Source of the DNA: a virus
Lineage: Duplodnaviria; Heunggongvirae; Uroviricota; Caudoviricetes
Strand: one strand, 5' to 3'
Length of the DNA stretch: 11,394 nucleotides
IMG/VR virus record: IMGVR_UViG_2695420412_000022
Span: 1-11,394 of that record
The notes under the pieces are model-generated. The model searched no databases and was not told where the DNA came from. It was given only the letters and a program-made list of their open reading frames with translations. The position numbers and the translations under genes were made by a program. How positions within the stretch are numbered: position 1 is the stretch's first letter; each line of letters opens with the position of its first letter. Of this stretch, positions 8,079-11,394 are shown in pieces.

Positions 8079-8677
8079 AATTACCTCTCGCTTTTCTGCA
8101 ATAAAAAAGGCACCATTTCTGGCGCCCGTATCTGGGTTATAAAACTCAGCTAATCGTGATGCCTGCAGTGGCTTTCTTCATCACCACAACCAGCAAATCG
8201 CTGATACTTGCTGTGGGATACCAGTTATTTACCAGCCATGCTGACACCGAAAACTCCAGTGTCATGTGACCGTGACCGGCAGGCATATCAATAACACCAC
8301 TGTAAATCAACGTATTATCCAGCGCGGTACGGTTATAAATTTCAGCACCGTTTTTCCGTACTATCAGGCGGCATGACGAATAAATATCGTTATTCTCCCG
8401 CTCATGTTTAGCGCCGCTGAATGCCACCGCCGGAATAACAATCTGCCGGTCAAACGGCTGATCGTCATAAACCCTGACGGTGATGGTCCCTGATGGCCAC
8501 CGTTCCGGTGCACGGGAGTCCCGGGGGAAAGCTTTGCCCACTGTTTTAACGAGATCGCCTTCAATCTGGTTGGCGGACAATTTTCCCAGAACCCGACAGT
8601 TCTCGTTAATCGTGACGTTGTTGAGCGTCCCGGAGTTCGCATTCACGTTACCGCTGATATCGGCATTTTTCGCCGTC
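8074..8677. repeat. copy 1 of the duplicated lom-start / spacer / J 3' segment (see 6541..7144)
   Basis: Visual alignment, as for 6541..7144. Confidence 0.9.
8103..8126 (-). terminator. candidate intrinsic terminator between J and lom copy 1
   Basis: Minus strand GGCGCC-AGAAAT-GGTGCC hairpin (one G-U pair) followed by TTTTTT. Confidence 0.45.
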
Positions 8678-11394
8678 AGCCGCCCGTCCGGTGTCAGGGA
8701 AAATGCCGGAGGATTACCGCCGCTGGTAATGGTCGGAGCCGTCAGGCGTTTCAGGAACACGTCGTTCATGAATATCTGATCGCCCTGACCAACAAACATC
8801 GGCTTTGTGTTGCCATTCGCAGGATTAATCATCGCAATCCGGTCAGCAGCCAGAAGCACCTGACTCTGCATACCTGCTGGCGTATTCTCAATACCGGCTC
8901 CGATACCCGCAATATAAAGGCGTCCGTCCTTCATCTGCTGCAGTTTCACGGCCCACATGCTGTTCAGGTTATTATTTGTATCAACCTGAACTTTCTGTAT
9001 CTGCTGGATTGCCGCACTCTGGTCTTCCAGTTTTTTATTGACGGTCTGCGTGATTTCATTGCTGACATTCGTAATGGACGTCCTGATTTCAGCCAGGTCC
9101 GGCGCAAGCTGACCGTTATCAATCTGCGTCCACAACTCCTGGGCCAGATGTGTTTTCCCGATTTCTCCTTTGAAAAAATCCAGGTAACCTTCCGCATCAT
9201 CGCTCGCCCGACCGACAGCCTCCACGAATGCCGATTTGCCAACGGTGTTCACACTGCGAACGTAAAAATAATAATCATGGCCCGGTTTGATATTGATACT
9301 GGCGGCTATCCAGTACAGCGCCGTACCAAGATAGCGGGCTGTGGTTTCAACCTGCCTGATATCGGTAATCCGCTTTTCCGAGAACCAGAACTCAAACTGT
9401 ACCGTCGGGTCATAAACAGCAAGATGCGGCGTGGCGGTTATCTGAAAATAGCCCGGCGTCAGCTCAATCCTCGACGGTGCTGCCGGTGCGGCAATCCGGA
9501 ACGATACCGACGCCGGATCGCCCTGCTGCCCCCGGGCATTTACCGCCCGGACTGTCAGCCTGTAGTTCCCCAGCGCCAGTTGCGTGAAGCGGTATGTGGT
9601 TTCCGTCGTCCGGGCCGTGCTGACCAGTCGCTCACTGCCGTCGTCCGCTGTTACGGTCAGACGGAGCAGGAAGCTCACGCCCTTCACCACCTTCGGTGTG
9701 TCCCATCGCGCCAGCACCTGATATTCCCCGCTGTCTGCAGTGACTTCGGCGGTCAGGTGCTGCACTGCTGGCGGCGTGACACCATTCACCGTGCCGCTCT
9801 GGTCACCGTCAAAGTGCGCCCCGTTATCCACGATGGCTTCTTTCTCCGGTACATGCTGCACGGCGGTGATGGCATACGTGCCGTCATCGTTCTCACGGAT
9901 ACTCACGCAGCGGAACAGGCGCTGGCGCAGCGTCGGCAGCTTCAGCCCCCACACGCTGTATTCTGCAACGCCGTCAGGAACACGGCTCACTTTCACCTTC
10001 ACGCCGTCGGTGACGGACTGGACCTCCACGCTGACCGGATTACCCTGACCGTCAACCAGGCTTATCAGCGTGGTACCGGAGGATGGCAGCGTGATTTCAC
10101 GGTCGAGCGTCAGCGTCCGGGTCTGGCTGTTCACCGCCAGCACGCGCCCGCCGGTGCTGATACCCGCATAGTCATCATCGCAGATTTCAATGACATCCCC
10201 CGGTACATGGCGAAGCCCTTCCGCACCCACGCTGAAGTCCACGGTCTGCGTTTCCAGCAGTTCCGTTTTAATCAGCCACAGCCCGGCGCGGTGCGCCTGC
10301 CCCCGGCTGGTACAGCCAAAGGCATCCATCTTCGTGACGTTACGACCGTAACGGGCAATGGCCTGCGTATCTTCAACAAGCTCTGTCGCCGTCTCCCAGC
10401 CGTTATCCGGGTCAATCCAGTTCACCTCAACGGCATTATGGCGGTCTTTCAGGGCGCTGAAACTGTAGCGGAACGGCGCGCCATCATCCGGCATCACCAC
10501 ATTACTGCGGTTATAGGCCCACACCTTATCCGACGGTCGGTCCTGCACGAACGTCAGCGTCTGCCCGTTCCATACCGGCATACAGCGCATCGCCGAGCAG
10601 AAATCACTGAGCACATCCCACGCCTTGCGCTGTGTGGTCAGGTACGCATTACAGGTGATGCACGGCTCCGTGCCGCCAAAGCCGTCCGGCACTGACTGGT
10701 CGCAGTACTGGCCGATGACATACAGCGCCCATTTGTCCACATCCGCCGCACCAAGACGTTTTCCCATGCCGTAGCGCGGGTGGGTCAGCATATCCCACAG
10801 ACACCAGGCCATGTTGTTGCTGTATGCCGGTTTTAACGTTCCGTCCCAGATACCGCTGTATTGTCGCGTCTGCGGGTTATAGTTCGACGGCACCTGCAGA
10901 ATGCGCCCGCGAAGATGATAATTACGACTCACCTGCTGGCTGCCGAACTGCTCCGAGTCCACCTGTACGCCGACCAGTGCCGTGTTCGGGTAGCACTGTT
11001 TCACATCGATGATTTCGGTGTATGACGACCAGAGCGTTTTGTTCTGCAGCTGGTCTGTGGTGCTGTCCGGCGTCATCCTGCGCATCCGGATATTAAACGG
11101 GCGCGGCGGCAGGTTATCCACCACCACCGAGGCCAGATACTGCGACGTGGTTTTACCCTTAATGGTGATGTCTTTTTCCGTCACCCAGCCACCGTTACGT
11201 TGTATCTGAACCAGCAGGCGGACTTCCGATGGATTCCTGTCCCCCTTTGAGGTGGTTTCCACCAGTGCCTGCACGCCGAAAGTAAAACGCAGACGGTCAA
11301 TGTTTGCCGACGTGATGGTCCGGGTGATCGGCGTGTCATATTTCACTTCTGTACCGAGCACCGTCTCGGAGCCGGAGGATTCAAATCCCTCCGG
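8146..11394 (-). CDS. J: tail tip host-specificity protein J (central fibre), 5'-truncated by the window edge
   Basis: The translation matches lambda J from about residue 85 onward ([70 protein letters not shown]...). The frame stays open to the window end. The last ~350 residues diverge from lambda J. Confidence 0.95.

Follow-up and report, generated by a model that had tools for sequence, protein, structure and literature searches.

The 11,394-nt stretch analyzed here (hereafter the window), from IMG/VR virus record IMGVR_UViG_2695420412_000022, carries a lambda-type gene J that is a natural mosaic, with a lambda-like body and an exchanged C-terminal part for which OmpC is the most probable porin, and the neighbouring copy of its 3' end is explained as a scaffolding artefact. 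We consider this explanation, taken as a whole, to be probable. The features that enter the argument are listed in Table 1.

Table 1. Position and basis of the features of gene J and its surroundings in the window.
Feature	Position	Strand	Basis
Gene J (tip attachment / central tail fibre protein)	8146..11394	-	ORF and translation, six Pfam domains
Lambda-like body: hub domains and two FNIII/Ig domains	9166..11394	-	lambda residues 78-820, 726/743 identical (97.7%), gapless
Replaced segment, corresponding to the lambda alpha-helical shaft and the top of the beta-prism fibre	8866..9165	-	lambda 821-892, 29 identities in 100 columns (29%)
Conserved island, the lower central straight fibre	8590..8865	-	lambda 893-984, 77/92 identical (83.7%)
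Receptor-binding domain, Ig-like, PF12421	8149..8589	-	lambda 985-1132, 61/148 identical (41.2%)
Hypervariable loop KHERENND	8386..8409	-	alignment of J sequences
Terminator-like hairpin plus T-run, shortly downstream of J	8108..8127	-	consensus scan only
Second copy of the 3'-terminal 532 nt of J	6613..7144	-	532/532 identical to 8146-8677
Single N, scaffold join	7145..7145	.	coincides exactly with the change in homology from stf N-terminus to J 3' end
Probable foreign-contig block: J 3' end copy, lom allele 1 (lom1, 7479-8078) and ~292 nt from the start of a further stf gene (7146-7437)	7146..8677	-	

Gene J runs from 11394 to 8146 on the minus strand, the stop codon counted in. Its 3' end is complete; the 5' end is cut at the end of the source contig (the window stops 2 nt short of it) and about 77 N-terminal codons are missing. 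All six Pfam families of the lambda-type tip attachment proteins (FNIII-A_GpJ, Phage-tail_3, Ig_J, Ig_J_second, Phage_Tail_Tip and Ig_GpJ_C) were found above their cut-offs and in the expected order. The matches in the PDB are lambda J and A8 gpJ (E = 1e-115 to 1e-136, with lambda J also listed at E = 0). The genes lom, stf and tfa lie downstream of J inside the window, as expected in the tail cluster, and the upstream tail genes, expected in the order M-L-K-I, lie outside it and are present at a near-identical locus in a closed genome. The prophage, which may be defective, is integrated in E. coli beside yciE/yciF/yciG/trpA, the ompW locus. An annotated terminator of phage 21 occupies the position of the hairpin predicted downstream of J.

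We aligned the translation globally with lambda J from NC_001416, using the domain names of PMC11101478. The original prediction described a body near-identical to lambda J that diverges from a short motif onward, in an interval ending at nt 9200. The identity of 97.7% over residues 78-820 bears out the first part, and a jump in mismatches at about nt 9180, where the count against lambda DNA rises from 0-6 to 10-26 per 30 nt, agrees with the second. The break thus falls at residue ~821 (nt ~9180-9165), and the GC content changes across it from 58-63% to 45-55%. The DNA of the body is 91-99% identical to lambda and 89-100% identical to phage 21, while the replaced segment, which holds a 28-aa insertion relative to lambda, is 94-99% identical to J of the O157 PPompW prophages and 87-95% identical to phage 21. 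In sliding comparisons the gene is lambda- or phage 21-like down to ~nt 9500, and PPompW-like (94-100%) from ~9480 to its end.

The last ~150 residues had also been expected to be substantially diverged, and they share 41% identity with lambda over 148 aa. The original prediction would have been refuted by a C-terminal domain at least 90% identical to lambda J, and the 41.2% over residues 985-1132 lies clearly below this. The Pfam family is retained, with PF12421 matched at full length (8149-8541, 129 bits against a cut-off of 26); this match and those to solved J structures are unambiguous. The receptor-binding domain is 100% identical to that of vB_EcoS-640R1, 98% to the 1A2/PPompW type, 65% to phage 21, 60% to A8 and 41% to lambda.

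Between the two exchanged parts, the conserved island is near-identical in 9/9 aligned J sequences and common to all J classes, and it contains both the upstream edge of the identical repeat (8677) and the graft point of the chimera gpJ 1A2 (~8649, read from the 1A2 sequence). It is likely to be a homology patch for module exchange. Gene J is best explained as a natural recombinant. A lambda/phage 21-like hub and FNIII part is joined, from ~nt 9480 to the stop codon, to a sequence type that O157 PPompW and numerous further E. coli prophages carry. Compared with lambda, the alpha-helical shaft, now 28 residues longer, and the C-terminal Ig-like receptor-binding domain would have been swapped out, with the conserved lower beta-prism segment between them as the recombination joint.

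Compared with its closest known relatives, the window J shares with lambda gpJ (NP_040600; PDB 8IYK, 8XCJ, 8XCK) the family, the domain order, the body, the lower fibre (84%) and the Pfam family of the receptor domain, but it differs in the replaced and lengthened shaft and in the receptor domain, and lambda binds LamB. J of phage 21 (OL657228) has the same body and the same long version of the shaft, with 87-100% DNA identity down to ~nt 8600, whereas upstream of ~nt 9500 the body of the PPompW J shares only 57-93% DNA identity with the window. The receptor domains of phage 21 and of the A8 gpJ module (PDB 9WCA; 9WCB with OmpC) belong to the fold family of the window domain but are of lower identity, and phage 21 natively uses LamB while A8 uses OmpC. 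Maddamsetti et al. 2018 (PMC6646904) described a J "specificity region" of residues 960-1132 that recombines as an independent unit, with variation peaking near 1012, 1048-49, 1077-78 and 1107. The window is a further instance of this module without difference of substance; what goes beyond it is the upstream replacement of the shaft, which is common among prophage J proteins.

The receptor can be approached through gpJ 1A2, a lambda chimera reported by Brödel et al. (Nature 2024, PMC11338833). Because the last 167 aa of the window J are 98% identical (3 substitutions) to its natural module, which depends on the ompC allele, OmpC rather than LamB is likely to be the receptor, and its use is probably restricted to certain OmpC alleles. 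The alignment with J proteins of known receptor, which had been proposed as a check, gave 98% identity to this OmpC-dependent module and 60% to OmpC-binding A8. The 1A2 sequence was taken from an OCR-processed PDF with dropped bases, in which four positions are illegible; as the module is recoded, the DNA string of the window has no match in the supplement, and the sequence was recovered by reading and translating across frames. Translated in this way, the recoded C-terminus is a PPompW-type module: wherever it is legible, the graft is 100% identical to the C-terminus of J from O157 PPompW prophages (e.g. LC567822).

The module alone converts lambda to OmpC-dependent delivery. According to Brödel et al. 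the chimeras recognize OmpC, and 1A2 delivers efficiently only to the EDL933 OmpC variant; their source data give 93-99% delivery in MG1655 carrying EDL933 OmpC and 5% at an MOI of 50 in wild-type MG1655, a K-12 strain that has LamB. When both lamB and ompC are deleted, delivery by 1A2 is set by the ompC allele supplied, with ~2% for G1 and G2 and ~98% for G3 and G5 (PMC11338833). The machine-read numbers for Extended Data Fig. 2c of that paper duplicate panel b and lack the 1A2/EDL933 result that is given in the text. For the sister-class module A8, which accepts other OmpC alleles than 1A2 (PMC11338833), the structure of the complex with OmpC has been determined (PDB 9wcb). A receptor other than LamB had been predicted for this phage, and the requirement of the 98%-identical 1A2 for particular ompC alleles in a lamB/ompC-deleted host backs this indirectly. 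We found no receptor data in the literature on the closest phages (vB_EcoS-640R1, PhiR49_2, PhiR55_1 and others). J receptor classes are treated neither in the HepS paper nor in the second paper on the BASEL collection, the literature that links host specificity protein J to OmpC and O157 yielded nothing usable, and that on lambdoid phages and ECOR13 consisted of unrelated papers on defence systems. If J acts as in lambda, the central fibre would consist of three J chains whose receptor-binding domains insert the loops at their lower end into a trimeric outer-membrane porin, and porin binding would trigger opening of the tail tip.

All three differences from 1A2 fall within one loop, which reads KHEKEHTD in the tested construct and KHERENND in the window. 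The substitutions (K→R, H→N and T→N) affect the codons at 8398-8400, 8392-8394 and 8389-8391, which align with lambda 1048, 1050 and 1051, next to the indel hot spot at lambda 1048-1049 that has been linked to host-range evolution (PMC6646904). If KHERENND retargets the module to a set of OmpC alleles other than that of 1A2, or to a porin such as OmpF, the receptor would not be readable from 1A2. Several observations speak for such retargeting: nearly all variation within this J domain class lies at these loop positions; three loop alleles (KHEKEHTD, KHEREHTD and KHERENND) recur among 80 IMG/VR loci, of which KHERENND is a natural minor allele (11/80); 8 nt mismatches to PPompW cluster within 30 nt at the loop, in a 1.3-kb stretch that is almost identical elsewhere; porin use is switched by single mutations in phage 21; and 1A2 and A8 already differ in the OmpC alleles that they accept. 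However, the other 164 of the 167 residues are identical to 1A2, and the module does not differ from 1A2 in its three other variable segments, which align with the lambda host-range positions 1012, 1077 and 1107. We regard retargeting as unlikely. As a tentative idea, the three loop alleles in a near-invariant domain could form a small natural specificity code matched to the surface-loop polymorphism of E. coli OmpC, the window allele selecting other OmpC variants, or another porin, than 1A2 does; we would not count on it.

Phage 21 shows why divergence from lambda alone does not settle the receptor. LamB is its native receptor, and a single J mutation alters its receptor use, yet its receptor-binding domain is only 46% identical to that of lambda and 82% identical to that of OmpC-binding A8; sequence class and receptor are therefore not related one to one. 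The original prediction took the divergence of the C-terminus as a sign of a changed receptor. The divergence itself is confirmed, but it is no proof of the change. The window domain might then still bind LamB, as that of phage 21 does, with no receptor change at all. This is improbable, considering that the 98%-identical 1A2 module was identified with a lamB-deleted recipient and that LamB-bearing wild-type MG1655 took up so little (~5%) compared with cells carrying EDL933-type OmpC. OmpC remains the likely receptor.

The sequence identity of the 532-bp duplicate at 6613..7144, which had been noticed before, was confirmed, but as a biological feature the duplicate does not stand, since a scaffold join lies at the N in 7145. 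The 532-nt copy belongs to a longer repeat of 1,189 nt (5956-7144 against 7489-8677, 92.9% identical), which includes lom. From 7144 to 3325 the window aligns with closed genomes without interruption at 99.9%, and in these genomes a full-length J gene ends with 6613..7144. Thus, this copy is most probably the sole J 3' end in the real prophage and continuous with the J body. The block 7146..8677 is absent from the closed genome, in which the J body runs directly into a lom2-type gene, and is best explained as a small foreign contig inserted by the scaffolder. Contig L011 of a sister assembly, which carries lom1, runs through the junction at 99.8% identity and reads past 7146 into a different stf. 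The scaffolder would thus have placed into the locus a small contig that stems from another prophage of this strain and is made up of the J 3' repeat, lom1 and the start of stf.

The alternative is a true tandem duplication with the order J-lom1-stf'-J'-lom2-stf, which would yield a free-standing 180-aa ORF of the receptor domain (6613-7155). The duplicated arrangement does stand in the deposited assembly, with a gene called on it. But the junction coincides exactly with the single N, the sequence across 7145 occurs in 0/5,426 complete E. coli genomes and, taken with its N as an exact pattern, in none of the genome contigs scanned, the block is missing from the closed genome that carries the same prophage, and the sister contig reads through into another stf; a second run of N, in stf, repeats the same pattern. 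An uninterrupted junction in independent assemblies, as a biological tandem duplication should give, was not found. These observations make such a duplication very improbable, and we reject it.

The mosaic J itself could be suspected of being an assembly chimera joined through a perfect 595-nt repeat (8083-8677), which is long enough to mislead a short-read assembler in a scaffold demonstrably misjoined nearby, but its divergence from lambda begins ~500 nt upstream of the repeat edge, near-identical J genes occur in complete phage records, and the full-length match in a closed genome effectively refutes the idea.

That match is WP_089423717.1, J of the ompW-locus prophage in the closed E. coli genome WP4-S17-ESBL-08 (AP022049), an intact protein of 1159 aa. 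At the same locus, it is identical to the window J in 1081 of 1082 residues, the only substitution being R322C in the window, and the DNA differs at 8/2717 nt in the body and at 0/532 in the 3' end. The chromosomal neighbourhood and the downstream lom2, stf, tfa and methyltransferase genes are shared as well; unlike the window, the AP022049 prophage has a single J 3' end, does not carry lom1 and lacks the additional 712 nt of stf. Because of this counterpart, and because the J genes of vB_EcoS-640R1 and PhiR55_1 span the whole gene at 96.8% and 95.4%, the mosaic J is, as judged from sequence comparison, real and not a product of assembly. Such a J is ordinary among lambda-like prophages, and there is nothing new in it: a near-identical J is in RefSeq, the receptor domain is common (its DNA is present in 3,350 of 5,426 complete E. 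coli genomes), and exchange of the module has been published.

Beyond correct annotation, the J finding matters little. The duplication of the J fragment and lom and the 1291-aa side tail fibre ORF are products of scaffolding and should not be interpreted biologically. The gene is to be annotated as a lambda-type J with a receptor domain of the PPompW/1A2 type and OmpC as its predicted receptor, a label that aids in predicting the host range of lambda-like prophages and in choosing natural modules with which to engineer lambda particles.

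Alignment of the window J, a tail-tip protein, with lambda J (NC_001416) showed the mosaic structure described in the original prediction: the body is 97.7% identical, and the last 148 lambda residues are 41.2% identical (61/148), so that the C-terminal domain falls far below 90% identity to lambda J. The coordinates and motif predicted for the change were also correct, as DNA mismatches to lambda jump sharply at about nt 9180. The GC content of J is 58-63% in the body and lower, 45-55%, downstream. Pfam detected the whole J domain series, ending with a full-length match to PF12421 (Tip attachment protein J, C-terminal receptor binding domain) at 8149-8541. 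In the domain nomenclature of a cryo-EM study on the lambda tail and LamB (PMC11101478), the window J differs from lambda J by replacement of the alpha-helical shaft and the upper beta-prism and by a divergent Ig-like receptor-binding domain, whereas the lower prism is kept. The conserved island retains, at ~8760-8790 (QIFMNDVF), the region around lambda J F924, which is discussed as a trigger peptide in a 2026 study of HepS, an abortive-infection protein of Gifsy-1. Antisense to J lies a 515-aa ORF (9148-10695, plus strand) with no Pfam match, probably a by-product of J composition.

Features of the window and aligned segments of J
Feature	Position (nt)	Strand	Remark
J	11394→8146	minus	
J, lambda residues 78-820	11394-9166		726/743 identical, gap-free
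J, lambda residues 821-892	9165-8866		29 identities/100 columns; insertion of 28 aa
J, lambda residues 893-984	8865-8590		77/92 identical (83.7%)
J, lambda residues 985-1132	8589-8149		61/148 identical
Loop KHERENND	8386-8409		sole polymorphic spot in otherwise almost invariant receptor domain
lom allele 1	8078→7479	minus	
Side-tail-fibre gene (stf) start	7437→7146	minus	first ~292 nt
Single N	7145		
Second copy of J 3' end	7144→6613	minus	last 532 nt of J
lom allele 2	6545→5946	minus	
stf ORF	5794→1919	minus	1291 aa; ten Ns inside at 3315-3324
tfa (tail fibre assembly)	1919→1335	minus	
Class I SAM-dependent methyltransferase gene	612-1280	plus	between tfa and prophage end

We also scanned the DNA identity of the window J against four full J genes. 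The body is lambda- and phage 21-like, and J of the O157 prophage PPompW shares 94-100% identity with the stretch that runs from about nt 9480 as far as the stop; phage 21 J is similar down to about nt 8600 and divergent beyond. In the closed E. coli genome AP022049, a near-identical prophage at the same locus encodes a 1159-aa J differing from ours by one residue (R322C), with 8/2717 nt different in the body and 0/532 nt in the 3' end. The codon of residue 322 (10660-10662) encodes Cys in the window and Arg in lambda and the closed-genome J (GGTEP[R/C]ITCNAY); the Cys may reflect natural variation or an error in sequencing. Whole-gene matches in phage records include vB_EcoS-640R1 (96.8%) and PhiR55_1 (95.4%). 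The receptor-domain DNA (462 nt, at least 80% coverage) was found in 3,350 of 5,426 complete E. coli genomes, with a median of two copies per genome having any, and 356 records reach at least 99% identity. J residues 960-1132, termed the 'specificity region', have been shown to recombine as a unit of their own, and hot spots lie near 1012, 1048-49, 1077-78 and 1107 (Maddamsetti et al. 2018, PMC6646904). Judged from these comparisons, the J mosaic is genuine and common; it was accurately predicted, yet it is well documented and extremely common, its sequence is essentially in RefSeq already, and the modular exchange has been published.

The predicted use of a receptor other than LamB is probably right, and published grafting data point to the likely receptor. 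Nine J proteins, aligned over their last ~150 aa, fell into four classes: lambda (41% identity to the window; receptor LamB); 434, represented by lambda h434 (41%), whose receptor is OmpC; phage 21, the chimera module A8 and a Stx1a phage (60-65%; LamB for phage 21, OmpC for A8); and the window class, comprising vB_EcoS-640R1 (100%), PPompW (98%) and PhiR49_2 (91%), where the 1A2 module uses OmpC. A PDB search matched 'A8 gpJ 713' (9WCA and 9WCB, the latter also containing OmpC), and the name A8 was traced to Brödel et al., Nature 2024 (PMC11338833), who made OmpC-dependent particles by grafting natural J C-termini onto lambda J and picked J variants with another receptor on a lamB-deleted recipient. 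We translated their second chimera, 1A2, across frames from the recoded DNA in the OCR'd supplement. The product is the PPompW module, with agreement wherever the sequence was legible. Its identity to the window module is 98%, the sole difference being KHEKEHTD in 1A2 versus KHERENND in the window. The 1A2 graft starts at '...[12 protein letters not shown]' (window equivalent, nt 8649-8149), and therefore the last ~167 aa alone carry specificity. Delivery by 1A2 was 93-99% into MG1655 with EDL933 OmpC; with wild-type MG1655, a host that has both LamB and K-12 OmpC, it was about 5% at MOI 50. In a lamB/ompC double deletion, delivery varied with the ompC allele supplied in trans (PMC11338833). 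By analogy with 1A2, the porin for the window J is most probably OmpC, with allele selectivity. Class membership is no proof of receptor, because phage 21, with a receptor domain 46% identical to that of lambda and 82% to that of A8, natively uses LamB and gains OmpC use by one J mutation.

The original prediction also noted a duplicate of the J 3' end. The 532-nt copy has no mismatch and belongs to a 1,189-nt repeat that includes lom, but it does not stand as a biological feature. The single N coincides exactly with the point at which similarity to the stf N-terminus gives way to similarity to the J 3' end, and a 240-nt query spanning the junction reached 80% coverage in none of the 5,426 complete E. 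coli genomes. A 2,473-nt contig of a sister assembly carries an identical lom1 (allele 1). Its 99.8% match to the window starts at 8357 and stops precisely at 7146, after which a different stf follows. From 7144 to 3325 the window matches closed genomes in one piece at 99.9%, and in those genomes the 'fragment' forms the 3' part of a complete J gene. The near-identical J body of AP022049 leads directly into a lom2-type gene (allele 2), and the 1.53-kb block 7146-8677 (J 3' repeat, lom1, stf start) is absent from that genome. These five lines point to a scaffolding artefact and not to a real duplication of the J 3' end and lom, and therefore the block from 8677 to 7146, together with the N, is best explained by a small contig that stems from a different prophage of this strain and was put into the scaffold. 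The lom alleles differ at 84/600 nt; the differences are clustered at the signal-peptide end and within two internal stretches, and the flanks are near-identical, a pattern that probably reflects two prophages in one strain. A predicted terminator-like GC hairpin with a T-run, from a consensus scan, directly follows J (8108-8127, minus), and a version of it with a single mismatch follows the second J 3' end (6575-6594, minus).

The ten Ns inside stf behave as the N at 7145 does and lie at a repeat boundary (127-nt repeat, 2476-2602/3325-3451). The closed genome lacks the 712 nt that follow (3314→2603), and its stf encodes 1008 aa; therefore the 1291-aa ORF, in which the motif '...[11 protein letters not shown]' is repeated, is probably a chimera of two stf genes. 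Across the tfa 3' end lies one copy (1286-1511) of a 227-nt repeat of 88% identity, and the other (236-462) corresponds to what the closed-genome annotation lists as a truncated tail-fibre-assembly pseudogene. The methyltransferase gene, on the strand opposite to the tail genes, looks like accessory cargo. The window J lacks ~77 N-terminal codons because the window stops 2 nt short of the end of its source contig (CYFU01000012.1, NCBI assembly GCA_001286305.1; traced through an exact match to the lom1 protein), which outside the window carries yciE, yciF, yciG and trpA, the ompW side of the chromosome.

By analogy with lambda (PMC11101478), the J trimer would present three Ig-like domains, and the loops at their base would reach into the extracellular opening of a trimeric porin; the effect of binding would then travel along the prism and the shaft and cause the tail tip to open. 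Nearly all variation among 80 IMG/VR loci of the window class is confined to the positions of the KHERENND loop, the main alleles being KHEREHTD (34), KHEKEHTD (34) and KHERENND (11). The three differences between the window and 1A2 align with lambda residues 1048, 1050 and 1051, a known hot spot (PMC6646904), and relative to PPompW the loop has 8 nt changes within 30 nt, the rest of 1.3 kb being nearly identical. On this sequence pattern, the loop allele might therefore influence the range of OmpC variants that the domain accepts.
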